Positions 6,245-56,775 of a stretch of 64,000 bases of DNA are shown here, one piece after another. Location of the stretch: the NCBI GenBank assembly GCA_020440645.1, contig JAGRNR010000009.1, positions 5,092-69,091 of the forward strand. Direction: 5' to 3'. Within the stretch, counting starts at the first letter, position 1; each line of letters begins with the position of its first letter. Source of the stretch: a bacterium. GTDB taxonomy: Bacteria; 4484-113; JAFGCY01. The translations under genes were made by a program, and so were the position numbers. Below the pieces are notes generated by a model. That model searched no databases and was not told where the DNA came from. It saw only the letters and a program-made list of their open reading frames with translations.

Positions 6245-6247
6245 GCC

Positions 6248-7495
6248 ATGTCCACCATCGAGATCATGCTGGCCTGCGTCAAGTCCATCTCCGCGAGGTG
6301 GAACCGCAGCCTGCTGACCGTGCTCGGCGTGGTGGTCGGGGTCGGCACCGTGGTGCTGCTGCTGGCATACGGTGCCGGGCAGAAGGCCGAGCTGCTGGCA
6401 CGCTATGAGGACTGGGGCGCCAATGAGATCCGCGTCAACATCCGCGGGCGCTGGGGCCGTGGCAACTGGATGTCCGAGCGCGAACGCCTGACACCCGGCG
6501 ACCTGGACGCCATCCTGAAGGACTGCGGTGCGGTCTCGCGCGCCGAGCCCTCCGTTGACACCGAAACCACCGTCCGCCTTGGCTCATATGAGCTGGAGGA
6601 GGTCGAGGTGCTCGGTGTCGGCCCTGACTACTTCGACATCCTTGGCGAGGAACTGGTCACCGGCGAAGCCTTCGGCGCCGAGGAGAACGTGCTGCGCGAG
6701 AGGGTCTGCATCATCAACACCACGATGCAGAAGGAGCTGTTCTTCGGCGCCCCGGCGCTCGGGCAGTTCATTGACATTGCCGGCCGGCGCTTCCGCATCG
6801 TCGGCACGATTGACTACGAGGAGGGCCGCCGCGCTGAGCCGACGGCCTTCATGCCCTACCTGACCTTCACGGACCGCACCTTCATCAACCAGCGCGGGCT
6901 CGGTGAGATCGTTGCCAGCGCCGTCAGCAGCAAGCATGTGAAGCTGGCGGCCCAGCAGATCGAGGAGCTGATGTACCTGCGCCACCCGCGCATCGAGAAG
7001 CCGGATGAAAGCGAGATCCGTGGCTGGTGGGACAAGCCGATCCGCGTGATGTACTCCGAGGAGCTGCGCAGCCAGCGAGAGGCCACCGCCGACAGTTTCG
7101 GCCAGTTCCTCGCGGTGATCGGCTTCCTCTCGCTGCTGATCGGCGGCGTCGGTGTGATGAACATCATGCTCGTGACGGTGCACCAGCGCACCGCGGAGAT
7201 CGGCCTGCGCAAGGCGCTCGGGGCCAAGCGCGAGGACATCCTGCGCCAGTTCCTCGCTGAAGCGGTGCTGATCAGCTTCAGCGGCGGGCTGATCGGGCTC
7301 GGGGCCGCCTGGATGGGCGCGAAGATCCTTGCCAACATGCCGGAGGATGCCCAGGTGCCGGACCCGGTGATCTCACCGCTGATCATCTTCATCGCCTTTG
7401 CGGTGACAGTCGGCACCGGCGTGTTCTTCGGCTACTACCCGGCCTGGCAGGCCTCACGCCTCGACCCGATCGAGGCCCTGCGCAGCAGCCGCTGA
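6248..7495 (+). CDS. ABC transporter permease, MacB/FtsX type (second, paralogous copy)
   Basis: VMNIMLVTVHQRTAEIGLRKALGAKREDILRQFLAEA. Same architecture as the upstream gene, with only a 3-nt gap between them. Confidence 0.9.
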   Translation: MSTIEIMLACVKSISARWNRSLLTVLGVVVGVGTVVLLLAYGAGQKAELLARYEDWGANEIRVNIRGRWGRGNWMSERERLTPGDLDAILKDCGAVSRAEPSVDTETTVRLGSYELEEVEVLGVGPDYFDILGEELVTGEAFGAEENVLRERVCIINTTMQKELFFGAPALGQFIDIAGRRFRIVGTIDYEEGRRAEPTAFMPYLTFTDRTFINQRGLGEIVASAVSSKHVKLAAQQIEELMYLRHPRIEKPDESEIRGWWDKPIRVMYSEELRSQREATADSFGQFLAVIGFLSLLIGGVGVMNIMLVTVHQRTAEIGLRKALGAKREDILRQFLAEAVLISFSGGLIGLGAAWMGAKILANMPEDAQVPDPVISPLIIFIAFAVTVGTGVFFGYYPAWQASRLDPIEALRSSR

Positions 7496-18163: not shown

Positions 18164-18342
18164 CCACACACATATTTATATGTGAAACGATTTGATTGTA
18201 CATAATGTAATCTTAGTTTAACTAAAGTTTAATAATAGACAATATGAACAGTCAGTTTTCCCTGACTGTCAACACTAAGTGCAAGCACCTTGTTAATACA
18301 TGGTTTATCATTCTGGCAATACTCTGCTGCGCGGAGGAGCAC

Positions 18343-38749: not shown

Positions 38750-39025
38750 ATGCCACAGCAGCATGAATTAATTACTGCAATCCTCGGACTTGGCGTGTTG
38801 TTGCTGATGATCGTGCAACGCCGCCAGCTGCGGCTCATCCCTGACTACCGCTGGCTGTTCCTCTCCTACTGCCTGATCCTGCTGGCCTGGCTGCTGACCA
38901 TTGCGGAAGATTACTGGCTGCCGGTCTACATGAACCTGCTGGAGCATATCTGTTACCTGGCCAGCGCAGCGCTGGTCGCCTGGTGGACACAGAAGTTCCT
39001 CAGAAGGGAAGCGCCACAGCAATGA
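38750..39025 (+). CDS. Small 3-TM membrane protein resembling the kinase sensor membrane domain
   Basis: MPQQHELITAILGLGVLLLMIV... The segment IPDYRWLFLSYCLILLAWLL parallels RRDYLWCLIILLVVLGL in the kinase. ATGA overlap with the kinase start. Confidence 0.6.
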   Translation: MPQQHELITAILGLGVLLLMIVQRRQLRLIPDYRWLFLSYCLILLAWLLTIAEDYWLPVYMNLLEHICYLASAALVAWWTQKFLRREAPQQ

Positions 39026-40836
39026 GCATGCTGCTGACGGTGTTTGACCTGCTGAGCCTGCTGGCCGTGCTGTCTGCACTGTGGCTGGCGGCAGCCAGGC
39101 GGATTGCCGGCCTGCGGCGTGACTACCTGTGGTGCCTGATCATCCTGCTGGTGGTGCTGGGTCTCAACTTCCTCAGCAACCTGCTGGACAACAGCGGGCT
39201 GAGCCCCTGGCTGGAGCGCTTCGAGGACTACCCCGGACTGCTGCAGCCGGTGTTCTGGGGCATCCTCCTGATGAGCCTGGTGCAGGACCGCGCCCTGCGC
39301 CGCACCGAGCTCTCTGAACAGCGGCTGCGCGGCCTGCTGGACGCGATGCGTGACGGGGTTGCCACTATTGACCCGGGTGGCGTGTTCCGCTTTGCCAACC
39401 CGGCGGCCGCGGAAATCCTCGGGGTTGCCCACGGCAGCCTTAGCGGCCGCAGTCTGGACGAGTTCTGGCTGGCTACCGAATCGCATACTTGCCGGATGCT
39501 GCCACATTCCCCGGGCCAGGATTACAGCGCCTACGAATGCGGCATCCGCCATGGCAGCGGCGACAGCCTCGTGCTGCTGCTGCAGGTCTCGCCGATCCCG
39601 GGCCAGCCCCGCCAGCGCCTGCTGTTCATGCATGATGTGACCCCGCTGCGCCGGGCCGAGCACAGCCTGCAGCAGGCCCAGGCCCAGCTCGGACAGGCCC
39701 AGCGGCTGGAGGCGATCGGCACGCTGGCCAGCGGCATCGCCCATGACTTCAACAACATCCTGTTCGCGATTTCCGGCAACAGCCAGATCGCGCTGGATAC
39801 TGAGGGACTGACCGTCGATGCGCGGGAGAGCCTGCGCGAGATCGACACCGCCAGCCGCCGCGCCTCCGACCTGGTGGCGCAGATCCTCAACTTCAGCCGC
39901 AGCGAGAAGAGCCGGACACGGGACCTGTTGCCACTTCCGGTTGTCAAGGAAGTGCTGCGCCTGCTGCGCTCCACCGTGCCGCCGCAGGTCAGCATCCAGC
40001 TCAGCCATGACGAATCGACGTGCCGGATCCATGCCGACCCGACCGACCTGCACCAGCTGCTGATGAACCTCTGCACCAATGCGATCCAGGAGATGGCGGT
40101 GGAGGGCGGGACGCTGCGGGTCCGGTTGGAGTGCAGCAATCCACCGCCGACACTGGCCGAGCGGGGAATGCTGCAGCCTAAACCACACCTGATGCTCAAG
40201 GTCAGTGACACGGGGGGCGGTATTCCACCGGATGCGCTGCCGCACATCTTCGAGCCCTTCTTCACGACCAAGCCAAGCGGTGAGGGCACCGGTCTAGGGC
40301 TGTTCGTTGTCAGCGGGATCGTCAAGCGCCTGCAGGGACAGATCGAGATTGACAGCGAACCGGGCCATGGCAGCAGCTTCACGGTCTGGCTGCCGCTGTC
40401 CAGCGGGGCCGCTGATGCCGACGATGCCGGGCCGGGGCAGGCCACCGGCCGCGGCCGGGGCCGGCTGCTGGTGGTTGACGACGAGCCGGCGGTCAACCGG
40501 GTGCTGGCGCTGATGCTCGGCCAGCTCGGCTACAAGGTGACAACCTATAGCGACAGCTACCGCGCGCTCAGTGAGTTCCAGACCAACCCGGAGCAGTACG
40601 ACCTGCTGCTGTGCGACATCTCGATGCCGGGCCTGCGCGGCGATGAACTGGTGAAGCGGATACGCTCCGTTCGCCCAGGCCTGCCGGTGGTGCTGTGCTC
40701 CGGCAATCCGGATGTTCTGCCTCCGGGCAGTGCAACTGAACTGGGTGTGCATGCAGTGCTTAAGAAACCGGTTGACAAGCCACAGCTGGCGGATTGCATC
40801 GCCGAGGCACTTGGCAGTAACCGTGCACAGGCCTGA
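39022..40836 (+). CDS. Hybrid sensor histidine kinase (TM sensor, PAS, HisKA, HATPase_c, receiver)
   Basis: LASGIAHDFNNIL (H box), LMNLCTNAIQE (N), DTGGGIP (G1), GTGLGL (G2). Receiver RLLVVDDEP...LLLCDISMPG...VLKKPV. Confidence 0.9.
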   Translation: MSMLLTVFDLLSLLAVLSALWLAAARRIAGLRRDYLWCLIILLVVLGLNFLSNLLDNSGLSPWLERFEDYPGLLQPVFWGILLMSLVQDRALRRTELSEQRLRGLLDAMRDGVATIDPGGVFRFANPAAAEILGVAHGSLSGRSLDEFWLATESHTCRMLPHSPGQDYSAYECGIRHGSGDSLVLLLQVSPIPGQPRQRLLFMHDVTPLRRAEHSLQQAQAQLGQAQRLEAIGTLASGIAHDFNNILFAISGNSQIALDTEGLTVDARESLREIDTASRRASDLVAQILNFSRSEKSRTRDLLPLPVVKEVLRLLRSTVPPQVSIQLSHDESTCRIHADPTDLHQLLMNLCTNAIQEMAVEGGTLRVRLECSNPPPTLAERGMLQPKPHLMLKVSDTGGGIPPDALPHIFEPFFTTKPSGEGTGLGLFVVSGIVKRLQGQIEIDSEPGHGSSFTVWLPLSSGAADADDAGPGQATGRGRGRLLVVDDEPAVNRVLALMLGQLGYKVTTYSDSYRALSEFQTNPEQYDLLLCDISMPGLRGDELVKRIRSVRPGLPVVLCSGNPDVLPPGSATELGVHAVLKKPVDKPQLADCIAEALGSNRAQA

Positions 40837-42558: not shown

Positions 42559-43011
42559 CTACCGCCACGCAAACCGCTCATCCAGCGCACCCGAGAGGAT
42601 GCGCTCCCGGAGCGCGATGATGCCGTCGATCAGCTGCTCGGGCCGCGGCGGGTCGCCCGGCACATAGATGTCCACTGGTACGATGCGGTCCACTCCCCCG
42701 TCCACCGCATAGCTGCCGTCGAAGGGCGCGCCGCTGATCGCCCCCGCGCCAAACGCCATCACGAAGGCCGGGTCGGCCATCGAGGCATGCAGCCGGCGGA
42801 TCACCGGGGCCATCTTGTTGTTGACGACGCCGGCCACGATCAAAAGGTCCACCTGGCGCGGGCTGGGGCGCATCACCTCAGAGCCGAAGCGCGCGATGTC
42901 ATAGCGCGGCGAGATCGCGCTGAACAGTTCCAGCGTGGCGTAGTCCAGTCCGAGCATCAGCGGCCACAGGGAATGGGCACTGGCCTCGCGGATGAGGTCC
43001 TTCAGACCCAT
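42559..43011 (-). CDS. nuoB: NuoB / PSST / hydrogenase-small-subunit-like protein with no cysteine (N2 cluster ligands all replaced)
   Basis: SLWPLMLGLDYATLELFS (canonical SLWPxxFGLACCAIEMM), SPRQVDLLIVAG, NKMAPVIRRL, FGAGAISGAPF (canonical MGACASSGG) and VDIYVPGDPPRPE (canonical VPGCPPRPE). There are zero Cys in 150 aa. Confidence 0.85.
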   Translation of the reverse strand: MGLKDLIREASAHSLWPLMLGLDYATLELFSAISPRYDIARFGSEVMRPSPRQVDLLIVAGVVNNKMAPVIRRLHASMADPAFVMAFGAGAISGAPFDGSYAVDGGVDRIVPVDIYVPGDPPRPEQLIDGIIALRERILSGALDERFAWR

Positions 43012-43400
43012 TCCAGCGCTCCCTTGCGGTAGGCATAGGCCCAGCCGACGAGCAGGATGCCGAGGAACACGAACATCTCGCCCAGTGAGGCGGCCCCGAT
43101 CGGCGTGAAGGTGATGTCGTCATTGCCGAACACCAGCAGCCGGAAAGCGGTGGCCCAGGGGAAGATGAACATGATGTCCACGTCGAACATGAGGAACACG
43201 ATCGCGAGGATGTAGAAGCGGATGTTGAAGCGCACCAGCGCATCGCCGGTGGCCTGCGCGCCGGATTCATAGCTCAGGCGCTTGAGGAAGTTCGGCCGCC
43301 GCGGACGCCACAGGTTCAGGAAAGCGAATGCCAGCCCGATCAGCACCGCCCCGCCCAGCAGGAAGAGTGCCACCCAGTTGTACTGTCCAACGGTGTTCAT
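43002..43400 (-). CDS. nuoA: NuoA/ND3 homologue
   Basis: LSYESGAQATGDALVRFNIRFYILAIVFLMFDVDIMFIFPWA. A 10-nt overlap with nuoB. Confidence 0.85.
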   Translation of the reverse strand: MNTVGQYNWVALFLLGGAVLIGLAFAFLNLWRPRRPNFLKRLSYESGAQATGDALVRFNIRFYILAIVFLMFDVDIMFIFPWATAFRLLVFGNDDITFTPIGAASLGEMFVFLGILLVGWAYAYRKGALEWV

Positions 43401-43453: not shown

Positions 43454-45553
43454 CTAGTTCACGGTGATGAACTTGTAGGCGATGCCCGTTTCCCCGAGCG
43501 AATCCGTCACCCGCACGGCAAGTGTGTAGAATCCGGGTGAGTTGAGGGTAGTGTTGATCGTGCTGTTCTCGAAGGTGGCTTCGAAGAAGCCGTCACCGTC
43601 CAGGTCATAGTCATAGATAACCGACAGCCCGTCCTCATCGTCCGAGCTCAGGCTGGCATCCAGCATTACCAGCACCGGTGCAAACCCAGTGTCCGGTGAT
43701 CCAGTCAGCACGGCGTTGGGCGGATGGTTCTCCAGACAGGTCAGCTTGTAGGCGCCCGGGCCGGTCTCGATGGCGGAACCGGGCACGAACACCTTCAGGT
43801 AGTAGCGCCCGGCGGCCGGCAGGCTGAAGTTGATGTATTCACGGTCCACGTTGTCAATCGATTCAATCAACGGAACGACCAGGTCTGACTCATGGTACAG
43901 AGCCAGTGAAAGGTCGACCGTCGCCGAACTGAAGTCCACCCAGAAGCTGGCGGTGGTGGCCCGGTCGGCATCGATCGCGTACCAGTCCTCGGTGTCGCTG
44001 CCGCCGACGCTAGCACTCCAGTCGCGGATATGCTTCGCGTAGTTGAGGAAACCGCCGAGGCTGTCCGCCTCCGTCTCGGCATTGTTGGGCTCAGTCTCCT
44101 GCGGGTCCACCCCGTTTGACACGATCACCTTCAGGCTGGCGGTGGCCTCCCGCTCACCACTGTCGGTGATGCGCACCGTTGGCGTGAATTCGCCGGGCAG
44201 CGTGTAGGTGATGTCACCACCGGGGTTCAGGCCGAGGTCATAGTCAAACGTGCCGTCACCCTCGAAGTCCCATTCGTACTTGACGATGTCATTGTCGGGG
44301 TCCACGAGGCCGCTGGTGTCGATGTAACGGATGATTCCGTTCTGCAGGCAGTAGTAGTCGATGCTCAGTTCAGCAGTGGGCGGGTTCTCACCGCTGATCG
44401 GCGTGATCGTGACATCCGTCGTGGCCGTGGCACTTTCCCCGAAGAAATCGATCACCATCACCCCGACGGTGAAGGTGCCGGCCTCGATGAATTCGCGGTA
44501 GGCGAAGGGGACCGGGGTCTGCAGCTCATGGAACCCGTCGTCGTCAAGGTCCCAGCGGTAATTGACGATGCCGCCATCCGGGTCCATGCTGTTGAAGGCG
44601 TCAAAGTTGATGGCCTGGGGCAGCGGACCGCCGTTCGGCAAGGCCACGATGTCCGCGATCGGTGGCAGGTTGCCCGGTTCACCGGTCACATTGATCGTGG
44701 CGGTGGCTTCGCCGGTGCCACCTTCGTTATCAACCACGCGCAGGGTGCAGGTGAAGGTGCCGACATGGTCGTAGTCGTGGCTGGGGGTCGGCCCGAGGTC
44801 ACCGGGTGTGAAGTAGATTGGGTCCTCGAATGACCAGTGGTACTCGGCGATCGTGCCATCCAGGTCGGAGCTGGCGGAGCCGTCAAACCCTGTGGTGAAG
44901 AAGTACTGGCCGCTGTCCTGGGCCACGGTGAAGCTGGCGGTCGGGGCGAAGTTGCCACCGAGCCGCACACGGGTCAGCTCGAAGCTGCCGCTGCCGGTCA
45001 GCAACACGCAGCAGTAGATCGCGTCGAAGTTCGAGAAATAGCCGTCCAGCGAGCCGAAGTCGAAGTGGTCATCGTCATTGCCAAGCTGCCATTTCCAGCG
45101 GCCGCTGCCGTAATCCGTGATGCCGACGTAGTACTCGCCGGAGTCCGGGCGCACGCCCCACTGCAGGTCGACCTGAGCCTCCCTTGCGAATCCCGGCAGG
45201 TGGTAACCGTAGATGCCCCAGCTCACATCCAGCTTCGGCGGGTTGGCGGCGGGGTCCCAGTCCGGGGCCATCAGCAGGCTGTCCCCGAACACGATCGCAT
45301 TCTCGCGGCTGCCGGGCGTGATGATCTCCGCACCCTTGCGGATGTAGTCCGCCGGTGTATCACTGAAGCTGCGCCCAACGGCGGGCAGCTCGGCCGGGGC
45401 TGGAAGCTGGGCAAGCAGGTCCTGCGGCAGTTCAACCGGACCGGACTGGCGCTCAGGCGTGGCAGCCTTTTCCTGCAGGTTGGCAGCGCCGGATGAACAG
45501 GCTGCCAGGCAGAATAGGCAGCCTGCCAGCAGAAGGGCAAATGAAGCACGCAT
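43454..45553 (-). CDS. Paralog 1: lipoprotein with a conserved unknown N-domain, PKD repeats, a PPC (pre-peptidase C-terminal) domain and a terminal PKD
   Basis: MRASFALLLAGCLFCLAACSSG. N-domain motifs VSWGIYGY and RWKWQLG...LRLGGNFAP. PKD examples YHWSFEDP..., YRWDLDDDGFHE and YEWDFEGDGTFD. PPC motif ETEPNNAETEADSLG...DWYAI...GRYYLKV. Confidence 0.85.
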   Translation of the reverse strand: MRASFALLLAGCLFCLAACSSGAANLQEKAATPERQSGPVELPQDLLAQLPAPAELPAVGRSFSDTPADYIRKGAEIITPGSRENAIVFGDSLLMAPDWDPAANPPKLDVSWGIYGYHLPGFAREAQVDLQWGVRPDSGEYYVGITDYGSGRWKWQLGNDDDHFDFGSLDGYFSNFDAIYCCVLLTGSGSFELTRVRLGGNFAPTASFTVAQDSGQYFFTTGFDGSASSDLDGTIAEYHWSFEDPIYFTPGDLGPTPSHDYDHVGTFTCTLRVVDNEGGTGEATATINVTGEPGNLPPIADIVALPNGGPLPQAINFDAFNSMDPDGGIVNYRWDLDDDGFHELQTPVPFAYREFIEAGTFTVGVMVIDFFGESATATTDVTITPISGENPPTAELSIDYYCLQNGIIRYIDTSGLVDPDNDIVKYEWDFEGDGTFDYDLGLNPGGDITYTLPGEFTPTVRITDSGEREATASLKVIVSNGVDPQETEPNNAETEADSLGGFLNYAKHIRDWSASVGGSDTEDWYAIDADRATTASFWVDFSSATVDLSLALYHESDLVVPLIESIDNVDREYINFSLPAAGRYYLKVFVPGSAIETGPGAYKLTCLENHPPNAVLTGSPDTGFAPVLVMLDASLSSDDEDGLSVIYDYDLDGDGFFEATFENSTINTTLNSPGFYTLAVRVTDSLGETGIAYKFITVN

Positions 45554-45608
45554 CTTTATTCCTCACTGCGCCCGGATACTCTCCAGCAAGCTGGAGGGGC
45601 AGCACAGA

Positions 45609-45614
45609 ATTCTA
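45609..45614 (-). promoter_or_regulatory. Putative -10 box (gTTAGAATTCTGTGC) for paralog 1
   Basis: It lies 55 nt upstream of the ATG at 45553. GAGGAATAAAG ATG supplies the SD. Confidence 0.4.
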
Positions 45615-45675
45615 ACTGAAAGAATCACCAAACTGAGCTTCGCGGCAAGCAGGTCCCAGCTACCCCTGGCACGGT

Positions 45676-47790
45676 TCAAATGGGTAAGGCAGTTACTATG
45701 ACGAAGTCTGTATCCGCGAGGCCCCACTCATCGATTACGCGCACGCTGACGACGATTGCACCGGGTACTGTGATCTGCGTGTCATAGGTGGGCTGGAACT
45801 GGCCGGTCACTTCAAAGATCCCGTCACCGTCGACATCAAACTGGTATTCAGTGATGTAGCCCATCTCAACTGTGCTGGCAGATGCATCCAGCGAAATGTC
45901 AAATGGAACCGACCCAACGAGCGGATCAGCGGACAAAGCGGCGTGCGGGCCGTCATAGTTGCGGCAGCGGAATGTGTAGTCACCGGGGCCCTTCGCCAGT
46001 GCTGAGGGATCTATGCTCACACGGATCAGGTACTGGCCGGCGGAGGGCAGCACGAACTTGAGGATTTCACTATCCAAGATGCCGTGTGCGCTGGCCAATG
46101 GGTTGTCGGTGTCGCCGGCGGAATACAGGTCCAGGCGCATGTCTATCTCGCTGCGGAGGAAATCCGCGACGAACGCCACTGGACCGCTGCGGTCGGATTC
46201 GAAGGAGTACCAGTCCGCGCTGTCGCCGCCGCCCTCATCCAGTGAGCCCTTCCAGTTGCAGATCCCCTTGGAGTAGTTCATGAAGCCGGTGAACTCCTCG
46301 GCCTCGCCCGGGGTACCGTTGGGTTCAGTTTCAGCCAAGCCGGAATTCGGCCCGATCCGCAGCGGTATGCTGGCAACGTCTGTCCGGCCGCCGCTGTCCG
46401 TCACGCGGAATGTCGCGTTGAAAGTCTGCCCTGTCTGGGCATAGGTCGCAACGAATTCCTCACCGGGGGCGAAAGAATAATCGAATATGCCATCACCCTC
46501 CAGGTCCGTCTCGAACGAGACGATGTCATTGTCGGGGTCGCTGCTCTCGCTCCAGTCTATCCTGAAGGCACCCGGTGAGTTGAAGCTGTAGTCGGACTTG
46601 ACGACGATGGTCGGCGGCTCAGTACCATCAACCGGGTCAATCACCACCGTGGTTGAGGCGGTGCTAAAGCTGCCCTGGTTGTCAATCGCCATCACGGACA
46701 CCTCATAGCTGCCGGGTACGGCGAAGAACCACTTCTGCACGGCACTGCCAAAAACCTCGAAATGCCCGTCTCCGTCGAAGTCGAAACGGTAGCCGGCTAT
46801 CGAGCCGTCCGTGTCGCTGCTGCCGCTGCAGTCGAAGTTGATCCACTGCGGGACCGGTCCACCGCTGGTGTCAGGCACGATCGAGGCAAGCGGTGCAGCG
46901 TTGCCATCCACCAGGGCGACCGAAATCGGGATGCTGAGCTCGGCGGTGGCTCCCTCATTGTCCGTCAGGCGCAGTGTGCAGGTGTACTCGCCCGCGTGGT
47001 CGTAAGTCCAGAAAACCACCGGGGCCGGGTACCGGAAATCCGTGTAGACCGGATCCTCCATTGACCATTCGTAGCCTGCAATGCTGCCGTCCGGATCGTG
47101 GCAACCCGAGGCGTCGAACTGGACCTCCAGAGAGCCTGTTCCACTGGTCTGGTTCGGGATCAGGCTGGCCACGGGCGGCAGGTTCTCCCCCAGACGCAGC
47201 CGGCTGAGATTGAAGTTGCCCTTGTCCGCGACCAGGATGGTGAAATAGATGTCGCCATTCCCGGAGAAGTAGCCGTCAAGGCTACCGAAATCAATGATGT
47301 CCTGATCCGTGCCCTGGAACCATTGCCAGCGATTGCTGCTGAAGTCGCTGACACCGATGTAGTGGCGCGCTCCGTCCGGCCTGGGGCCTTCCCACAGTAC
47401 CTGCAGTTCCGGCTGGCGCTGGAAATCAGTGATGTTGAAACCTTAAATCGCCCAGCTCAGCTCACGTGTCGGCGGCTCGGCCACGGGCTCGTAATCAGCA
47501 ACCATCACAAGCATGTTCCCGACAATGCTCGCATTGGCGAATGCATCAGGCTGATAAGTCTGATATCCATCCCGCAGGAAGTCCTCCGGGACATTGCTGG
47601 CGCTGCGCTGCTGCTGAGGCAGGCTGTCCAGTCCCGGCAGCCCGTCAGCCAGCGAGGGACTGAGCTGTACAGCCTCAGCCTGCGCGGAAACGGGCAGGTC
47701 AGCCGCCTGCTCCGGATGGGCCGGCTGGCTGCTGCATGAAGCCGCGAGCAGCAGGCAGCCTGCGCACGCGATGGCGAGAAGAGCTTTCAT
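45676..47790 (-). pseudogene. Paralog 2 of the PKD/PPC lipoprotein family, interrupted by a single in-frame TAA (47445..47443)
   Basis: Track ORFs 47443..47790 and 45676..47172 are in the same frame (2115 nt, 705 codons). My translation across the gap reads LSWAI*GFNITDFQ...YIGVSDFSSNRWQWFQG...LRLGENLPP, aligning with LSWGIYGFNIADYQ...YIGVSDYSSGHWQWRQG...LRLGGNFPP of paralog 3. The stop replaces a Tyr conserved in all three other paralogs. Confidence 0.8.
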
Positions 47791-47843
47791 CTTTATTCCT
47801 TGAACCTGCCTGGTTCCTTATGGCAGTGCAGGAGGCTGGGAAA

Positions 47844-47849
47844 ATTCTA
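47844..47849 (-). promoter_or_regulatory. Putative -10 box TAGAAT for paralog 2
   Basis: It lies 53 nt upstream of the ATG at 47790. AAGGAATAAAG ATG is nearly identical to the paralog 1 leader end. Confidence 0.4.
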
Positions 47850-47903
47850 CTCGATCAGTCTCAATCATTGACTTTCCCAGTAAAGCAATCCGCCAGCGAT
47901 CAT

Positions 47904-49997
47904 TCAGGGGGCGATGCCCGTCACTGTCACCGTGGCGATTGACTCCATTCCCAGCATGTCCTGTACCTTGACGCCGAGCTCCTGCGGTCCTTCCCAGCTG
48001 ACGGTGCCAGTACCGAGCCATCCGCCGGGCTCGCTCTCGAAGATCCCGTCGCCATCCATGTCAAAGAAGTAGATCAGGCCCTCCAGGTAACGGTCATAGC
48101 TGCGGCCCGCGTTGAGCACAACCTCGGTCCCCGTCTCCACTACCGTTGCGGAGGCCGTGACAAAAGCCACCGGCTTGGAGGGGTCCCAGAAGTCCAGCTT
48201 GTAGCCGCTGTCCTGCCCGGCCTCGCCTGCCTGCTTCGTGAACACGCGCAGGAAGTAGTCCCCCGGCGCCGTAATGAGAACGGACATAAACTCGTTGTCG
48301 GTATCCGAGTAGCTGAAGAACAGCGGGTTCACCAGGTCAAGAGGGCTGTACATCTCAATGTCCATGTCCATGAAACTGTGCGTGAAGATCAGGTTGAACC
48401 ACAGCTGGCCGTTGTGCGCGGCATGGATCACATACCAGTCCTCGGTATCCTCAGCGAACTTGAGCTGGCCGGGAAAGTCGCGCACCCGCACACACTCGTT
48501 GCCAAAACTGCCCAGGCTGATCGCCGTCTCCGGGCTGTCATTCGGTTCTACCTCCGGCTGGCCGGAGAATGGCGTGACCATCACTGGACAGGTTGCCGTG
48601 TCACTGCGTCCGCCGCTGTCAGTGACCCTCACGGCGACGTTGAACACGCCGCCATCCTGGGAATAGGTCACGTTATTCACGGGATCGAGCCCTGAATCAA
48701 CGTCGAACGTGCCGTCACCCTCGAAGTCCCATTCGTACTTCACGATGTCATTGTCAGGGTCATAGGATCCCTGTGCGGTGAAGTACCGTGCACCCGCAGT
48801 GTTGTCATACCAGTAGACGGCCTCCAGCTTTGCCACCGGAGGCTCCGTGCCCTCCACGGGCAGCACCTCGATCTGCATCGTGGCCGTGTCGACGGCACCG
48901 AACTCATCAATCACCATCACGCTGGGGTTGTAGGTGCCGGCTGCGATGTACAGAGCCTTGAACACCGGGCTGCCAAAAGTGAACTGCTCGAAGTACCCGT
49001 CCTCGTCAATGTCCCAGCGGAATGTCATGAAACCGTTCTCCGGATCCGTGCTGTCCTGTGCATTGAGCGTGACGGAAAGCGGAACCAGGCCGGATACCAC
49101 ATCAGATTCAGAGTAGATATCGGCCACAGGCGGGTCATTGCCAGGCACGGCGGTGACGCTGATCGGAATGACAAATTCCGTCATTCCGCCTTCGAGGTCA
49201 TGCGCCCTGCCTATGCAGTCGTACTCGCCGACATGGTCATACTCCCAGTACAGGAACGGACCGGCGGGCTCGAAGATCGGCCCACCCTCGGCGGACCATT
49301 CAAAGAAGGTCAGAGTGCCATCCGGATCGTAGCTGGCTGAGGCATCGATGTTGACCGTCAGCTTGCCCTGGCCGCTGTCGTTGTCAATCGTGTAGTCGAT
49401 CACGGGCGGGAAGTTGCCGCCGAGGCGCAGCCTGCTGAAGGTGAACTGGCCCTCCGTTGCCAGCAGCACCACCACATACAGGTCGCCGTTGGCAGAGAAA
49501 TAGTCAGCCAGCCCCGGGAAGTCCACGGTCCCGTCCGCCGTACCCTGGCGCCACTGCCAGTGTCCGCTGGAGTAATCACTGACCCCGATGTAGATGCCGG
49601 AGCTGGCGGGCGCAGTGCCATTCCACTTTGCCTGGATCTCCGTGCCGCGCTGGTAGTCTGCGATGTTGAAACCGTAGATCCCCCAGCTCAGTCCATGCAT
49701 CGGCGGGTCGCCCTGCGGATCATAGGTCGGGCTCATCGAGAGCTTGTCACCGGTCACCTCGGCATTCATCTTCGCCGATACCTTGTAGATGTCGGCTCCC
49801 GTGCGGATGCAGGCTTCCGGCGTATTGCTGGTACTGCGCTGCATGGCAGGCAGGGCAGAAATGGCCGGCAGCTGCGATTCAAGCTGCGGCAGGACAGCGT
49901 CGCCTGCCGGTTGGTTTACCTGGCCGCCACTTCCGCTGGAGCAGGCTGCCAGCAGCAGCATCGCTCCGGCCAGCAGGCCACTGAGCTGTCTGAACAT
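47904..49997 (-). CDS. Paralog 3: lipoprotein with the unknown N-domain, PKD repeats, PPC and a terminal PKD
   Basis: MFRQLSGLLAGAMLLLAACSSGSGG, LSWGIYGFNIADYQ, FRWDIDEDGYFE, YEWDFEGDGTFD, and EVEPNDSPETAISLG...DWYVIHA...GDYFLRV. Confidence 0.85.
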   Translation of the reverse strand: MFRQLSGLLAGAMLLLAACSSGSGGQVNQPAGDAVLPQLESQLPAISALPAMQRSTSNTPEACIRTGADIYKVSAKMNAEVTGDKLSMSPTYDPQGDPPMHGLSWGIYGFNIADYQRGTEIQAKWNGTAPASSGIYIGVSDYSSGHWQWRQGTADGTVDFPGLADYFSANGDLYVVVLLATEGQFTFSRLRLGGNFPPVIDYTIDNDSGQGKLTVNIDASASYDPDGTLTFFEWSAEGGPIFEPAGPFLYWEYDHVGEYDCIGRAHDLEGGMTEFVIPISVTAVPGNDPPVADIYSESDVVSGLVPLSVTLNAQDSTDPENGFMTFRWDIDEDGYFEQFTFGSPVFKALYIAAGTYNPSVMVIDEFGAVDTATMQIEVLPVEGTEPPVAKLEAVYWYDNTAGARYFTAQGSYDPDNDIVKYEWDFEGDGTFDVDSGLDPVNNVTYSQDGGVFNVAVRVTDSGGRSDTATCPVMVTPFSGQPEVEPNDSPETAISLGSFGNECVRVRDFPGQLKFAEDTEDWYVIHAAHNGQLWFNLIFTHSFMDMDIEMYSPLDLVNPLFFSYSDTDNEFMSVLITAPGDYFLRVFTKQAGEAGQDSGYKLDFWDPSKPVAFVTASATVVETGTEVVLNAGRSYDRYLEGLIYFFDMDGDGIFESEPGGWLGTGTVSWEGPQELGVKVQDMLGMESIATVTVTGIAP

Positions 49998-50091: not shown

Positions 50092-52914
50092 CTAGGCTTC
50101 CGGCAGGACCTCCATCATGTAGTCCTGCTCGAGCTTCGGGTTCGAGCTGGCCCACACGTAGGCATTGATGTAGTAGGTACCGGGCGCGGTGAAGTTGTAC
50201 GTGATCGACTCGTTGTCAGTGGTGCTTGTCGATGAGCCGATCTGGGACGTGCCGTCGGTGTCATACAGCTTCAGGTCGAGGTCGGACAGCGCATCGGTGA
50301 AGTACATGTTGATCACATAGCTGCCCGGTGTCACGATCTGGATCTTCATCCAGTCCGACTCGTCGCCATCCAGCGGCCCGTCCGGCCCGAGGTTGCCGAA
50401 CCAGCCGGTGAAGTCCGTGCCGGGGAACATGTTGCCGGTCAGGTAGTCGTCATTGTCCTCAACCTCGTCGTAGGTCAGGCTGACCGAGATATCCACCGAG
50501 TCGGTGCCACTGGCACCGTACTGGTCCGTCACGCGCACCATCGCGCTGACTGTGCCGGCCGAGTAGTAGGTATGGGTCACGAAGGGGTCGGTGGTGGTCT
50601 CGTCCCAGGTGCCGTCTCCGTTGTAGTCCCACTCGAACTTCGTCAGGTCATGCCCGTCCGGGTCGGTGCTGCCGCTGGCATCGAAGTCCACCACAAGCGG
50701 GGCCTCGCCACTCAGCGGGCTGGCGGTCAGGACCACATTCGGGTTGCCGTTGATCGAGTTGACGTTTACGGTCTTCGTCACCTTGCCACCCTGGTCGTCG
50801 GTCACGCGCACCTTGACCGCCACCGTGCCGGAAACCGTCATGTCGCCCATGAAGACTGAGGTCGTGCCGGTGTCCTGCTCGAAGCTGCCGTTGCCATCGA
50901 CGTCCCACTCGTACTTGGTGATCGTGCCGTCCGGGTCGTAGCTGCCCGTCGCATCCAGCGTGACCGGGAAGGGCACGTTGCCACTGAGCGGGCTGACGTT
51001 GAAGGTGACCACCGGCAGGCGGTTCACGCTGGCATCGAAGGTGTAGTCCGCCGGACCGCGGTCAGTCGCGCTGGCGTAGATGTAGATCCGGATGAAGTAG
51101 GTGCCGGTCTTGTCAGCCGGGATCGAGTAGCTGATCGACTCCGTGTTGCCCGTGCCGGTGGAGGATGCCACCGAGGTGCTCAGGTCGGATTCATGGAACA
51201 GGCGGATGTCAATGTCAGCCTCGGCATCGATGAAGGCCAGGTTCAGCTGCACCTCCAGTGGCTCGGGTGCCGCGAACACAAGCCAGTCCTCCTCGCTGCC
51301 GTCATAGCCGCCCACTCCGAGGTTGCCACGCCAGCCCTGGATGCCCTTCGCATAGCCGCCATAGCCCGGCAGCTGGTCAGCGGAAGCGCTGTCGTCATTC
51401 GCCTCGGTCTCGTGGTAGTTGCCGGCGCTGTCAACGATGAGCGTGGCCTGGAAGGTGTCATTCAGGCCGCCGCTGTCGGTCACGCGCAGGACCGGGGTGT
51501 AGGTGCCGATGCCGGGGTAGGTATGCTGGGCAGTGGCCGTGCCGCCGTTGTCAAGCTCGTAGGTTCCGTCACCGTCCCAGTCGAACTCGTACTTGACGAT
51601 GTCGTCGTCCGGGTCAGTAGAGACGGAGGCGTCGAAGTTGAACACGCCGTCATCGGTGCGGAAGCCGTAGTCCACCAGCATCAGTGCGTCCGGCGGGCTC
51701 TGCACCCCGACCTCCATCACCTCGATCAGCAGGTTGTCAGTCGCCGTGCTGCCGAGGTCGTCAGTCACGCGAAGCTTGATGTCGTAGCTGCCTGGATCGT
51801 TGAACGTTGTCGATGTGCTGTCGACCACGCCGGTGTCCTTCTCGAAGCTGCCGTTGCCGTCGAGGTCCCATTCGTACTTGACGATCGTGCCGTCCGGGTC
51901 GGAGCTGCCTGTGCCGTTGAACAGCACGGTGAGCGGTGCGGAACCGGTGGTCTTGTTGGCGCCGAGCACCGCCGTCGGCGGGTCGTTGTCAATGACAGGG
52001 GTGACGCTGACAACGGTCTCCGCGATGCGCTGGGCGCCCTCATTGTCAGTCAGCTGCACGCGCACGAGGAAGTTGCCTGTCTGGTTGTAGACATGCTGCG
52101 TGGTCTGGTCGGTACCGGGGGCACCGAAGCCGTCACCGGTGAAGTCCCATTCGAAGCTTGTGATGTCGCCGTCGATGTCATAGCTCGCACTGGCGTCGAA
52201 GTTGACGGTCAGCGGCACGGTGCCGCTGGTCGTGTCAGCCTGCAGGTCCGCCACCGGTGCGATGTTGTCACCGAGGCGCAGCTGGCCGAGGCTGTAGCTG
52301 CCCTGCCCGGTCAGCACCACGGCGATGTACAGGGTGTCCGTCGGGGAGAAGAAGTCCGCCAGGTTGCCGAAGTCCATCGCCGTGCCGGCGGCCGGTCCCT
52401 GGAACCACTGCCAGCGGCCGGCATCGAAGTTGCTGATGCCGATGAAGTAGTTGCCGGCGGGCGGCGTGGTGCCATCCCACCACAGCTGCAGGGTGCCGGG
52501 GCTGACATAGCCGGTCAGGCCGAAGCCGTAGACCGCCCAGGCCAGGTCGCTGGTGGGCGGGTTGGCGGTGCGCACCCAGTCCGGCGTCATCACGAGGAAA
52601 TCCCCGTCCACACTGGAGAAGGACTTCATTTCCGGCGTGATCAGCTGCGAACCAAAGCGGATGAAGTCCTCCGGCGCATTGCTCGAGCTGCGCTCGACGG
52701 CCGGCAGGTCTGAAAGGTCCGGCACCCCGTCCATGGCCACGGTGATCTCCGGCGCGGGCTTGGCATGTTCGATGCTGTATTCGAGGACCGGCTGTTCCTC
52801 ATTGAACTCGAACTTCTCGCGCTTGAAGAGTACCTGGTCTCCGCCCGACCCGCCTCCGCAGGAGGTGAGCAGGATTGAGACGGCGATGGCCCAGACATAT
52901 AGTGCATTTCTCAT
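50092..52914 (-). CDS. Paralog 4 (940 aa): lipoprotein with the unknown N-domain, PKD repeats, PPC, two further PKD and a second PPC
   Basis: MRNALYVWAIAVSILLTSCGGGSGG, LAWAVYGFGLTGY, FEWDFTGDGF, YEWDLDGNGSFE, YEFDWDGDGTYE, and two PPC blocks (ETEANDDSASADQL... and EVEDNDDYLTGN...). Confidence 0.85.
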   Translation of the reverse strand: MRNALYVWAIAVSILLTSCGGGSGGDQVLFKREKFEFNEEQPVLEYSIEHAKPAPEITVAMDGVPDLSDLPAVERSSSNAPEDFIRFGSQLITPEMKSFSSVDGDFLVMTPDWVRTANPPTSDLAWAVYGFGLTGYVSPGTLQLWWDGTTPPAGNYFIGISNFDAGRWQWFQGPAAGTAMDFGNLADFFSPTDTLYIAVVLTGQGSYSLGQLRLGDNIAPVADLQADTTSGTVPLTVNFDASASYDIDGDITSFEWDFTGDGFGAPGTDQTTQHVYNQTGNFLVRVQLTDNEGAQRIAETVVSVTPVIDNDPPTAVLGANKTTGSAPLTVLFNGTGSSDPDGTIVKYEWDLDGNGSFEKDTGVVDSTSTTFNDPGSYDIKLRVTDDLGSTATDNLLIEVMEVGVQSPPDALMLVDYGFRTDDGVFNFDASVSTDPDDDIVKYEFDWDGDGTYELDNGGTATAQHTYPGIGTYTPVLRVTDSGGLNDTFQATLIVDSAGNYHETEANDDSASADQLPGYGGYAKGIQGWRGNLGVGGYDGSEEDWLVFAAPEPLEVQLNLAFIDAEADIDIRLFHESDLSTSVASSTGTGNTESISYSIPADKTGTYFIRIYIYASATDRGPADYTFDASVNRLPVVTFNVSPLSGNVPFPVTLDATGSYDPDGTITKYEWDVDGNGSFEQDTGTTSVFMGDMTVSGTVAVKVRVTDDQGGKVTKTVNVNSINGNPNVVLTASPLSGEAPLVVDFDASGSTDPDGHDLTKFEWDYNGDGTWDETTTDPFVTHTYYSAGTVSAMVRVTDQYGASGTDSVDISVSLTYDEVEDNDDYLTGNMFPGTDFTGWFGNLGPDGPLDGDESDWMKIQIVTPGSYVINMYFTDALSDLDLKLYDTDGTSQIGSSTSTTDNESITYNFTAPGTYYINAYVWASSNPKLEQDYMMEVLPEA

Positions 52915-52965: not shown

Positions 52966-53103
52966 CCGGATTTTATGGTGACACATGTGAAAGATTAATT
53001 GTGTACCGCCGGTCGGTTTCATCTCAATTTGAAGTACCCTTGAAATTGTGGAAGAATTGTAAGAGGGCAGGCAAGCATGCCTGTCCGGCTGGCTGGACAA
53101 GCA

Positions 53104-56100
53104 ATGAAACGAAGCATCTTCACTCCTATGATCCTGTTTGTGCTGCTGATTGGCGCATGCGCCTCACAGCAGCAGCTCAGTGCTGAACCGGGTGCAGGCG
53201 GCACTACGGTGTTCGATAACGACGCAGGCAGCCCGGGCCTCGTGGATGACCCCGGCATGCTGGCCCTGCCCGGTGAGCCGGGCAACCTGGCCGGACTGCG
53301 CAATGTCGCGGACCCGGAGGCTGAGCTGGAACTGCCGCGGCGCACGGCGCGGGCCGGGCAGGACTTTGCCGCCAACCGCCTGGTGGTGGTCTGGGAGAAC
53401 CAGCCGGACCCGGCGGTGCAGCAGCAGTACATGGGCGGCGGCCCGCAGGCGGACCTCAGGCGGGCGACGGACAACCATCCGCTGGTGGACCACCCCTTCT
53501 ACCGCCGTGTCAGCCACAACTTCGCCCAGCACTACGGCCTCAGTGAGTTCGGCCGGGTGTTCTACAAGGATGTCAACTTCACTGCATATGAAGTGCCCGG
53601 CCTGACGGATGTCAGCCAGCTGGACGCGCTGATGCAGAAGCTGCTCAGCGAGAACCGGGGCCTCGTGCGCGAGGTGAACTACGACTTCTACGTGGACATC
53701 AGCCAGACGGTGGAAACTGAGCCGGTGCCGCTTGATCAGGAGCGCATCCAGCAGGTCATCCAGTCCTCTCCGGCTGCACCACAGCGCATGCGTGAGCAGA
53801 ACCGCAGCACGAGCGCTGCCCCGAATGACCCGATGCACCTGAACCTGAGCGGCAGCGACGGCGGCACCTGGGCAAACTGGCGCATCGGTGCGGTCGACGG
53901 CCAGGCCTGGGACAGCGGGGTGGGCAGCCATGACGTGGTGGTGGCGGTGGTGGACACCGGTGTGCGCTACACGCATGAGGACCTCGCTGACAACGCGATC
54001 GAGCCCGCCGCGGAATTCCCGTACAACGAACCGGGCATCCTGACGGACGTGATCAACAAGGACAACGACCCGTTTGACGACCACGGCCACGGCACCTACT
54101 GCTCCGGCATCGTCGGCGCCGTTGGCAACAACGGGCTCGGGCTGGCCGGTGCCAACCAGCAGGTCAGCATCCTGCCGGTCAAGGTGCTCAGCGGCGGCGG
54201 CAGCGGCAGCGAGACCCAGGTGGCGGAAGGCATGCTGCTGGCGGACTACCTCGGGGCGGACATCATCAGCATGTCGCTCGGCGGGGATTTCCCGGACCGC
54301 ATCATGCAGCTGGCCGCCAAGCAGTGCGACAGTGACGGAGTGCTGGTGGTGGTGGCCGCCGGCAACAACAACTGGGGCGGGCTGTTCTACCCGGCCTACT
54401 ACCCGGAATGCCTCGGGGTCGGTGCGACCACACTTGTCAACGACTCCAATGACCAGGACTTCAGCCAGGTGGACGGCGAGATCCCGACGGCTGACCGGTA
54501 CGACGCGCGCGCCAACTTCTCCAACTACGGCAGCTGGGTGGACATCGCTGCCCCCGGCGTGCAGGTGCGCTCGACATCAAACGGCTCGGACACTTCATAC
54601 GGCGCAAGTGGTGCCGGCACCAGCTTCGCCTGTCCCTACGTGGCCGGCTGCGCAGCGCTGCTGTGGGCGCATATGGGGCCGGACAAAAGCAACCATGAGG
54701 TGCGCGGCATGCTGCAGGGCAGTGCCACCGTGATGGACCACCTCAACAACGGTGCCAACCCGCGCGGCTTCATTGACAACGACACCAACGGCACGGTGCG
54801 CTTCGTGAACGTCTGGGAGGCGATCAAGCTGTACGATGCCGGGCCCTATGAAGCGCCGGCTGTCAGCTGGACCAGCCCGCTGGAGGGAGCGAGCGTCAGC
54901 GGCCTGACCGACCTGCAGCTGGAGATCACGGGCGGCAGCGGCAACATCCTAAAGGTGTCCTTTGAGACCCCGACGCGGCACCTCGGCACGGTGACCGAGG
55001 AGACTGGCGGCTTCTGGCAACTGAGCTGGGACAGCGCGTTTGAGTTCAACGGCGGGCAGACCATCACGGCGACGGTGACGGACGACGTCGGGCACATCAT
55101 CAGCCTGCCGCTGCATGTCAACTGTGACAATGCGCACATCGTGCCGGAGTGGCAGGAGGGCTTCGACGGCCTGGCGGATGACACGCTGCCGGCGGGCTGG
55201 TCCGTGCTGGATGGCAACGCCGGTACCAACAACACCATCTGGGGCGCTGACAACTCAGATGGTGGCGATGCCTCCCCTTCGATGCACTCCAGCGGCAGCA
55301 CGGGGAACTACGCCCCCAACAGCAATGACTGGCTGTATGCGCCGGTGATCGACCTGACAGGCGTTGCCAGCGCCTCGCTCGAGTTCAACTACCTGCACCG
55401 GATGGCCAATGACGGCGGTTTCCTGTTCATCACGGCGGATGACGAGACCTACGCCGGCGACGGATTCTTCGGCGGTGGCAACCCGGACTGGGACAGCTAC
55501 AGCTTTGACCTGACGCCGTTTTGCGGCGCGGAAGTGCGCATCTTCTGGGTGATCGACTGCAATGGCGGCAACCAGGCCGGCGGGATGTGGATTGACGACG
55601 TGCACATCACCGTGCCGGAGGGCACGCCGCCGACCGTCAGCATAGACAGCCCGCTGGCCAATGCCAGCGTGGACGGCATCGTGGACGTGCAGCTGACCCT
55701 GAGCGATGATACGGTGGCGGTCGAACTGATCGGCCTGCCGGTCAGTGCCCCGCCGCTGCTGTTTGACAGCATCCCGGACAACGACCCCGAGAACCCGACG
55801 AAGACATTCACGGCCACATGGGACAGCCGCCAGACCGGCACCGGAAATGTGCTGCTGCGCGCGCGGGCCTATGATGATGAAAGTGACAACGGCGGGCTGG
55901 ATGACCTGGCGGCCGAGGACAGCGTGGTGCTGGACGTGACAAACCCCGTGGCCGGCCCCGGCTGGCTGGAGGACTTCGAGGATGTGGTGGACCTCGGCGG
56001 GACTGACAACGGCCAGCCGGATGGTGCGTGGTTCCGTATCGGCGCTGACCCGGTGCGCTGGCGTACGGGCCTGCAGGCCCCCTGGCGCGGCCTGGGCCAC

Positions 56101-56775
56101 GCCTACTTCGGCCCTGATGGCGGCGGAGACTATGGCAACGATGAACTGGGCTGGCTGTACAGTCCGCTGATTGATCTGGCTGCTGCGGCCCGCCCGCGGA
56201 TCCGCCTGCAGCACAGCCTCGACGTGGACGCTGCCAATGCCGACCGTGCAGTGGTCTACATGGTGCGTTATAACGGCAGTGAGGTGCTGGAAGCCAACCT
56301 GTTTGAACAGCGCAATGACACTGCTGGTTACCAGCCGCTGCTGTTCAACCTTGACGGGATGTCCCAGCAGCCCTTCCGCCTGCTGTTCCTGTTCGACTCC
56401 GATGGCAACAGCCAGGCCGGCAGCGGCTGGAGCCTGGATGACATAGAGGTAATGGATGCTGATCCCTTCCTGCTAGGCCTGACTCAGCCGCGCGGCTATC
56501 CCGGCCAGACGGTGGTGCTCAATGGCAGCAACTTTGGGGTGCTGCAGGAGGACAGCTTCGTCAGCTTCCGCAGTGAGGGTGGCGGCAGCACGCTTGCAAC
56601 AGTCAGCTCATGGAGCAATACGGAAATCAGCGTGGTCGTGCCGCCGGATGCTGATAGTGGCGATGTGTTCGTGACCGTGCTGGGCTTTGAAAGCAATGCG
56701 CGCCACTTCAGCCGGCTGCTGGACCCGACTGAGCTGACCGGCATCGGACAGTTCAGCCTGTCTGACGGCATCTGA
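53104..56775 (+). CDS. Subtilisin-family (S8) serine protease lipoprotein with Ig-like, two choice-of-anchor-J/MAM-like domains and an IPT/TIG domain (1223 aa)
   Basis: MKRSIFTPMILFVLLIGACAS. Catalytic triad contexts VAVVDTGV (Asp), HGHGTYCSGIVGA (His) and GTSFACPYVAGCAALL (Ser). C-terminal DWLYAPVIDL and GWLYSPLIDL blocks, then the TIG-like GQTVVLNGSNFG...GDVFVTV. Confidence 0.9.
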   Translation: MKRSIFTPMILFVLLIGACASQQQLSAEPGAGGTTVFDNDAGSPGLVDDPGMLALPGEPGNLAGLRNVADPEAELELPRRTARAGQDFAANRLVVVWENQPDPAVQQQYMGGGPQADLRRATDNHPLVDHPFYRRVSHNFAQHYGLSEFGRVFYKDVNFTAYEVPGLTDVSQLDALMQKLLSENRGLVREVNYDFYVDISQTVETEPVPLDQERIQQVIQSSPAAPQRMREQNRSTSAAPNDPMHLNLSGSDGGTWANWRIGAVDGQAWDSGVGSHDVVVAVVDTGVRYTHEDLADNAIEPAAEFPYNEPGILTDVINKDNDPFDDHGHGTYCSGIVGAVGNNGLGLAGANQQVSILPVKVLSGGGSGSETQVAEGMLLADYLGADIISMSLGGDFPDRIMQLAAKQCDSDGVLVVVAAGNNNWGGLFYPAYYPECLGVGATTLVNDSNDQDFSQVDGEIPTADRYDARANFSNYGSWVDIAAPGVQVRSTSNGSDTSYGASGAGTSFACPYVAGCAALLWAHMGPDKSNHEVRGMLQGSATVMDHLNNGANPRGFIDNDTNGTVRFVNVWEAIKLYDAGPYEAPAVSWTSPLEGASVSGLTDLQLEITGGSGNILKVSFETPTRHLGTVTEETGGFWQLSWDSAFEFNGGQTITATVTDDVGHIISLPLHVNCDNAHIVPEWQEGFDGLADDTLPAGWSVLDGNAGTNNTIWGADNSDGGDASPSMHSSGSTGNYAPNSNDWLYAPVIDLTGVASASLEFNYLHRMANDGGFLFITADDETYAGDGFFGGGNPDWDSYSFDLTPFCGAEVRIFWVIDCNGGNQAGGMWIDDVHITVPEGTPPTVSIDSPLANASVDGIVDVQLTLSDDTVAVELIGLPVSAPPLLFDSIPDNDPENPTKTFTATWDSRQTGTGNVLLRARAYDDESDNGGLDDLAAEDSVVLDVTNPVAGPGWLEDFEDVVDLGGTDNGQPDGAWFRIGADPVRWRTGLQAPWRGLGHAYFGPDGGGDYGNDELGWLYSPLIDLAAAARPRIRLQHSLDVDAANADRAVVYMVRYNGSEVLEANLFEQRNDTAGYQPLLFNLDGMSQQPFRLLFLFDSDGNSQAGSGWSLDDIEVMDADPFLLGLTQPRGYPGQTVVLNGSNFGVLQEDSFVSFRSEGGGSTLATVSSWSNTEISVVVPPDADSGDVFVTVLGFESNARHFSRLLDPTELTGIGQFSLSDGI

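Follow-up and report, generated by a model that had tools for sequence, protein, structure and literature searches.

The locus described here raises the question of what a single stop codon means in the middle of a gene that is otherwise open and conserved along its length. It lies in a 64,000-nucleotide stretch of bacterial DNA (the window: contig JAGRNR010000009.1 of assembly GCA_020440645.1, positions 5,092 to 69,091 of the forward strand), within paralog 2, one of four tandem genes that are predicted to encode lipoproteins with PKD domains. A preliminary description of this DNA offered five readings of the stop: very recent pseudogenisation, a strain polymorphism, a sequencing error, an on/off variant, and stop read-through. 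The first two stand and the remaining three are either rejected or unsupported; taken as a whole, the observations are very probably explained by a real, derived, recent and strain-specific nonsense mutation, an ordinary loss-of-function polymorphism. The features of paralog 2, in window coordinates, are as follows.

45676..47790, minus strand: paralog 2, the disrupted gene, 705 codons, collinear with intact alleles of 704 residues and with its own Shine-Dalgarno-like AGGA before the ATG
47443..47445, minus strand: premature TAA at codon 116, where a C-to-A change at window position 47443 has replaced TAC (Tyr)
47446, minus strand: haplotype-specific synonymous ATC-to-ATT change (Ile115), 3 bases upstream of the nonsense change
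47734..47790, minus strand: signal peptide with the putative lipobox LAAS-C19, assigned by pattern, its Cys invariant in the family
47173..47619, minus strand: predicted N-terminal jelly-roll domain, codons 58-206, matching no Pfam family, with the stop inside a core beta-strand
47443..47790, minus strand: open reading frame (ORF) of 115 residues, the sole one retaining the signal peptide (NCBI hypothetical protein MCB1186404.1, KDL29_04475)
45676..47172, minus strand: downstream ORF of 498 residues from an internal GTG, equivalent to Val207 of the intact protein (MCB1186403.1, PKD domain-containing), without a signal peptide

Translation of the minus strand of 45676..47790 bears out the reported 705-codon frame with one internal TAA, and the peptide LSWAI*GFNITDFQ across it (the asterisk marks the stop at 47443..47445, TTA when read on the plus strand). 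For this stop, a six-frame scan of the window for stops flanked on each side by 100 or more open codons gave 124 such codons before it and 588 after. At the corresponding position the other three members of the array, all intact on translation, carry the motifs that the preliminary description had given for them.

43454..45553, minus strand: paralog 1, 699 residues, WGIYGY
47904..49997, minus strand: paralog 3, 697 residues, WGIYGF
50092..52914, minus strand: paralog 4, 940 residues, WAVYGF

The stop thus occupies a family-conserved tyrosine codon from which it is one substitution away, as had been proposed: the residue is Tyr in 9/9 family members, the nine-member alignment of paralogs and orthologs being invariant there, and its codon is TAC in the intact alleles. 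Among more distant representatives of the N-terminal domain the same column is Tyr in 133/149 and aromatic in 148/149.

Intact alleles were recovered by a protein search in which the stop in the query was replaced by Tyr, and with them the comparison with related genomes and metagenome-assembled genomes (MAGs) that had been suggested for this site. The first match is a 704-residue protein (P0001) with 97% identity, and three more intact forms (P0119, P0120 and P0121) belong to its cluster; all four read LSWAIYGFNITDFQ, with the codon TAC. Carriers of intact alleles are CP060262.1, a complete 4.11-Mb MAG (isolate HK-STAS-UBP7_A-1), and JAGRNT010000005.1 (isolate UBP7 HKST-UBA03), and further ones are found on contigs from at least eight other samples. 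The window gene is 97.6-97.8% identical to the intact 704-residue alleles, with 46-50 substitutions and no indels over 2115 nt, and no further stop is present across these 2115 nt, in keeping with the earlier statement that homology continues on both flanks without another lesion. One paralog 2 allele departs in length (SAMN08389219, 250-2355 of locus L019): an in-frame 9-nt deletion takes out PVD behind ...TTVVID and leaves 701 residues, the rest being of the CP060262 type.

The direction of the change can be read from the same comparison. Because all of the paralogs in the window and all orthologs have ATC or GTC followed by TAC, and ATT followed by TAA occurs in the window haplotype only, TAA is the derived state, reached by a C-to-A transversion. 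Gene conversion from a paralog was considered as a source of the TAA and rejected, since every paralog has TAC and none carries the nearby haplotype-specific bases. Relative to both intact haplotype groups the window haplotype has its own state at about 11 synonymous sites, 3 nonsynonymous sites and 1 nonsense site. Five of these approximately 15 substitutions, the nonsense change included, fall within the 55 nt at 47443..47497 (gene nt 294-348); this cluster, for which no paralog is the donor, could be a small recombination tract from an unsampled lineage or the product of a multi-nucleotide mutation event.

The TAA allele is reproducible. The exact 115-residue truncated product occurs on 7 contigs, and every locus fetched has TAA, the sources being the ENA assemblies of SAMN08389165, SAMN08389166 and SAMN08389167, Logan SRR6747763, ENA ERZ27309058 and the NCBI MAG. 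Because the TAA recurs in three BioSamples and with several assemblers, and is linked to single nucleotide polymorphisms (SNPs) specific to its own haplotype, of which four more lie within the 55 nt (gene nt 294T, 306C, 308T and 345T), a one-off sequencing or assembly error is excluded. No evidence of TAT or TAC was found in the TAA strain and no additional disabling mutations, the two observations that the preliminary description had singled out as counting against its proposal. Within the TAA haplotype there are micro-variants, T218I (CA-to-TT at gene nt 653-654) and a T-to-A change at nt 687, with states as in the JAGRNT-type allele. The contig from SAMN08389166 stops 44 nt past gene nt 687, and the variants reflect either recombination within the TAA lineage or co-occurring strains mixed in assembly.

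We have also examined how old the mutation might be. With CP060262.1 as the comparison, codons 1-115 have a ratio of nonsynonymous to synonymous substitution rates (dN/dS, Nei-Gojobori) of 0.209 and codons 117-704 one of 0.207; two intact alleles compared with each other give 0.24-0.27. Since there is neither a second lesion nor any sign of relaxed constraint, these comparisons argue that the mutation is recent relative to the divergence of about 2%. The alignment to intact alleles already refutes an old, decaying pseudogene, for which only the stop itself speaks, against the lack of indels or a second stop and a dN/dS of about 0.2 on either side.

The organism, which the isolate names assign to candidate phylum UBP7, belongs to a setting with a time axis. 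The saline activated-sludge time series from Sha Tin, Hong Kong (PRJNA432264) has yielded three UBP7 MAGs of class 4484-113 (PMC8495973), and in its sample list SRR6747763 is dated to 2 June 2007, as the first sample, and SRR6747796 to 18 August 2008 (PMC12021597, Table S2). SRR6747763 carries TAA and SRR6747796 carries TAC. BioSample numbers may follow sampling order, with which it is consistent that SRR6747763 matches SAMN08389165 and that SRR6747796 shares rare variants with SAMN08389176. On this ordering we infer that TAA was assembled in June-August 2007 and intact alleles in August 2008, July 2009, August 2010, December 2011 and May 2012. These dates fit a strain-borne variant that left with its strain, non-assembly being no proof of absence. 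An exact 45-nt pattern admitting both alleles gave no matches in JGI metagenomes, and a literature search by accession numbers found no paper.

We propose that, in a single strain lineage of an uncultured bacterium of phylum UBP7 from the Sha Tin sludge, one C-to-A transversion changed the TAC codon of the conserved Tyr116 to TAA, giving a within-species polymorphism in which sister strains and a neighbouring species retain the intact 704-residue gene. Translation from the native start would then end after 115 residues, which take in the signal peptide, a linker and under half of the jelly-roll at the N-terminus, and the PKD, PPC and remaining jelly-roll parts would not be produced in exportable form. 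Because the 115-residue product would end in the jelly-roll core and the rest would not be exportable, the function of paralog 2 would be lost; truncation within a core strand together with loss of everything past residue 115 makes a null most likely in the TAA strain. Three tandem paralogs remain, and plausibly buffer the loss.

Gene callers divide the frame into the 115- and 498-residue ORFs listed above. Internal re-initiation at the annotated GTG (47172) was rejected as an account of the second: the nearest GGAG lies about 14 nt upstream, there is no well-spaced Shine-Dalgarno sequence, and the product has no signal peptide. The 498-residue ORF most likely arose in annotation, as an artefact of the gene being split. 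In these respects the locus resembles recent nonsense (unitary) pseudogenes that occur as bacterial strain polymorphisms, with which it shares a single derived stop at a conserved codon, intact conspecific alleles, the lack of further decay and a gene that callers report as two ORFs; nothing essential differs, other than that the present case comes from the uncultured candidate phylum UBP7 and can be dated in a time series.

Several points weigh against this interpretation. The unchanged dN/dS is equally expected of a gene that is still functional, and low-level read-through may occur or a cytoplasmic C-terminal fragment may be made. The support for TAA consists of assembled contigs, and some of the TAA assemblies share reads; a common set of reads probably underlies both the ENA assembly of SAMN08389165 and that of Logan SRR6747763. 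Apart from the two SRR runs, the link between BioSample and date is indirect.

What the truncated protein would normally do can be approached through its family. Each of the four paralogs has a signal peptide and a lipobox Cys at its start; C19 is invariant in the nine-member alignment and the Cys column is at least 90% conserved in 60 distant members, and we predict from these features that the four tandem genes encode lipidated PKD-domain lipoproteins. PKD_4 matches all four at 106-185 bits (Pfam cut-off 27), with several PKD domains in each, and a PPC domain exceeds the Pfam threshold in paralogs 1 and 4. Residues 1-206 have no Pfam match, and the domain at approximately 58-206 lies outside any Pfam family. 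A profile search with this N-terminal domain recovered 826 cluster representatives at a threshold of E<=1e-3, or 252 at E<=1e-10, the domain being nearly always at the N-terminus of proteins of 600-900 residues; PKD domains are also present in 36/60 of the representatives scanned.

Structure prediction from a 38-sequence alignment gave a model of the domain with a predicted local distance difference test score (pLDDT) of 92; an earlier one from three paralogs reached a pLDDT of 49 and was discarded. The model is a beta-jelly-roll in which the mutated Tyr lies inside core strand E55-63, and it resembles solved carbohydrate-binding modules (CBMs), at a sequence identity to the structural matches of only 5-17%. 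From the galactose-binding-like modules of CBM6, CBM35 and CBM36 the domain differs in having no Pfam- or CAZy-type sequence match, and residues 1-206 fall in no curated CBM family by Pfam. It also stands at the N-terminus of PKD lipoproteins and is not attached to a glycoside hydrolase, and sugar binding by the domain is hypothetical.

Paralog 2 also stands apart from its neighbours in its relationship to other genomes. The window is 92-98% identical to CP060262.1 gene by gene. Its identity to JAGRNT010000005.1 is only 72-81% for the S8 peptidase and the other three paralogs (1, 3 and 4) and 90-93% for nuoA and nuoB, yet 97.6% for paralog 2, and the corresponding synonymous divergence (dS) is 0.61-0.85 for the other paralogs, 0.28-0.30 for nuoA and nuoB, and 0.064 for paralog 2.

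~45591..47900, minus strand: putative exchanged tract, paralog 2 and its spacers, ~97.6% identical to JAGRNT010000005.1 (9700-12200 of locus L016), with a sharp downstream and a fuzzy upstream edge

Because the low dS of paralog 2 cannot be explained by constraint at the protein level, the pattern points to a recent homologous exchange of paralog 2 alone between two species-level lineages. Across the upstream junction the JAGRNT arrangement recurs, 100% identical, on a separate single-sample contig from SAMN08389199; at the downstream junction of the JAGRNT tract a chimeric assembly is possible. The SNPs within paralog 2 form a mosaic, nt 1693-1873 grouping the window with JAGRNT and other blocks grouping JAGRNT with CP060262.

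A rival reading is that the loss of paralog 2 was adaptive, the exposed lipoprotein being targeted by a phage, predator or competitor and the nonsense allele being an escape variant selected in the 2007 population. The combination of a lipobox, a CBM-like jelly-roll and PKD repeats does suggest an exposed binding protein, and the same selection would account for the exchange between species of paralog 2 alone, whose dS of 0.064 next to 0.28-0.85 in its neighbours indicates a recent cross-lineage transfer of this gene only; copy architecture in the family varies too, as in paralog 4 (940 as opposed to 845 residues) and in the allele with an in-frame deletion of 3 residues. However, only one knock-out allele has been seen, where recurrent independent knock-outs would mark selection, the succession from TAA in 2007 to intact alleles from 2008 to 2012 (in the order deduced above) agrees with a neutral or slightly deleterious variant that disappeared together with its strain, and the link to a phage or receptor is hypothetical. 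We consider an adaptive loss unlikely, and slightly more doubtful still is the fuller scenario of a receptor-like lipoprotein under strong fluctuating selection, recombined across a species boundary and then knocked out in the 2007 strain as an escape from phage or predator. If it were true, the TAA would be one visible move in a strain-level arms race within candidate phylum UBP7.

A stop that is read through, whether by a suppressor tRNA or by a near-cognate tRNA for Tyr, Gln or Lys, would give some full-length lipoprotein and leave the gene functional. Insertion of Tyr would recreate the wild-type protein, TAA is the rarest stop in this window of 62.7% GC (it ends 3/43 long ORFs), and dN/dS is not raised downstream of it, although recency explains the equal ratios just as well. 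The stop is not conserved, every ortholog found having TAC; its flanks are as in the intact alleles, hence no dedicated signal has evolved; and the folding of the 106 nt beginning at the stop is not stronger than that of shuffled sequences (z = +0.8). The base after the TAA is G, and UAAG is reportedly an efficient terminator in E. coli. Elsewhere in the window TAA ends a complete gene, as the preliminary description had pointed out:

6242..6244, plus strand: control TAA ending a complete MacB-type permease gene (MacB_PCD+FtsX); a second complete permease gene starts at 6248

The two permease genes (5021..7495, plus strand, each MacB_PCD+FtsX) are in the same frame and separated by the TAA and one codon, an arrangement that at first pass can be mistaken for an interrupted gene. 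Altogether the six-frame scan gave three in-frame TAA sites with long open frames on both sides, and only that in paralog 2 splits a gene: the TAA at 6242 is a gene boundary, and that at 18229 ends an ORF that overlaps a longer one on the opposite strand and is taken to be spurious. An alternative code or recoding was rejected on these grounds, the scan having returned, besides paralog 2, only gene boundaries and overlapping-frame noise, with termination at 6242; no tRNA gene is present within the 64-kb window. Programmed read-through and stop reassignment share with this locus an in-frame stop inside an otherwise intact conserved frame, but here the stop is absent from all orthologs, there is no stimulatory element, TAA terminates elsewhere and only one such site occurs in 64 kb. 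Read-through is accordingly a very unlikely account of the locus, and a nonsense polymorphism is the reading that we retain.

That the TAA is an artefact of sequencing or assembly and the strain truly has TAC is highly improbable. The MAG was built from short-read metagenomes, and some contigs break in the gene (that of SAMN08389166 at gene nt 731, with only an 806-bp contig from SAMN08389167), which implies mixed strains; but the TAA appears in the assemblies of three BioSamples made by different assemblers, always with its haplotype-specific SNPs, and TAC haplotypes assemble cleanly from other samples. A reversible, phase-variable switch at the site has hardly more in its favour than that one treatment plant has yielded both states over time, and we give it very little credence. 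No tandem repeat, homopolymer tract or inverted repeat is found at or around the site, the local sequence GCGATTTAAGGTTTC having neither a short tandem repeat nor any run of four or more identical bases, and the two states are on haplotypes 46-50 substitutions apart, which means different strains and not switching within one clone. Phase-variable surface-protein loci of the slipped-strand or invertible kind do share with paralog 2 that one member of a tandem surface-exposed family has ON and OFF alleles in one habitat; here, however, the alleles differ by a point transversion, neither a repeat tract nor an invertible segment is present, and ON and OFF belong to distinct strain haplotypes.

The surroundings of the array include several further points of variation. 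Paralog 4 has 940 residues in the window and in CP060262.1 and 845 in JAGRNT010000005.1 (5168-7705 of locus L016), the latter being short of approximately one PKD repeat, so that repeat number varies between lineages. The genes nuoA and nuoB (42559..43400, minus strand) start 53 nt downstream of paralog 1. Because the four paralogs follow one another with no terminator-like site in between, and a promoter-like site precedes paralog 4, the four lipoprotein genes, perhaps with nuoA and nuoB, may be co-transcribed, and a polar effect of the premature stop on co-transcribed genes is conceivable. The nuo cluster is split, nuoC and nuoD lying several kb further on, beyond unrelated genes. At ~38750..40836 a hybrid histidine kinase/response regulator (604 residues as called; PAS-HisKA-HATPase-Response_reg) and a 91-residue gene stand between TfoX and nuoC in the window and in JAGRNT010000005.1, and are absent from CP060262.1. 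Divergent from the lipoprotein array is a subtilase of 1232 residues (Peptidase_S8 and Big_7; 53077..56775, plus strand), which is among the most strain-divergent genes, with 92.3% identity to CP060262.1 compared with 97-98% for the paralogs.

The finding is of use chiefly for annotation: MCB1186404.1 (115 residues) and MCB1186403.1 (498 residues) are halves of one disrupted gene and should be flagged as a pseudogene, not as two proteins, and the finding has no bearing on genetic-code variation or recoding. It may also serve as a trackable marker, since the public activated-sludge series of 2007-2015 (later samples, to 2019, are partly deposited) would let the frequency of the allele be followed. 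What the locus offers, for an uncultured phylum, is a clear-cut loss-of-function polymorphism that can be dated, in a gene with signs of recent cross-lineage exchange.

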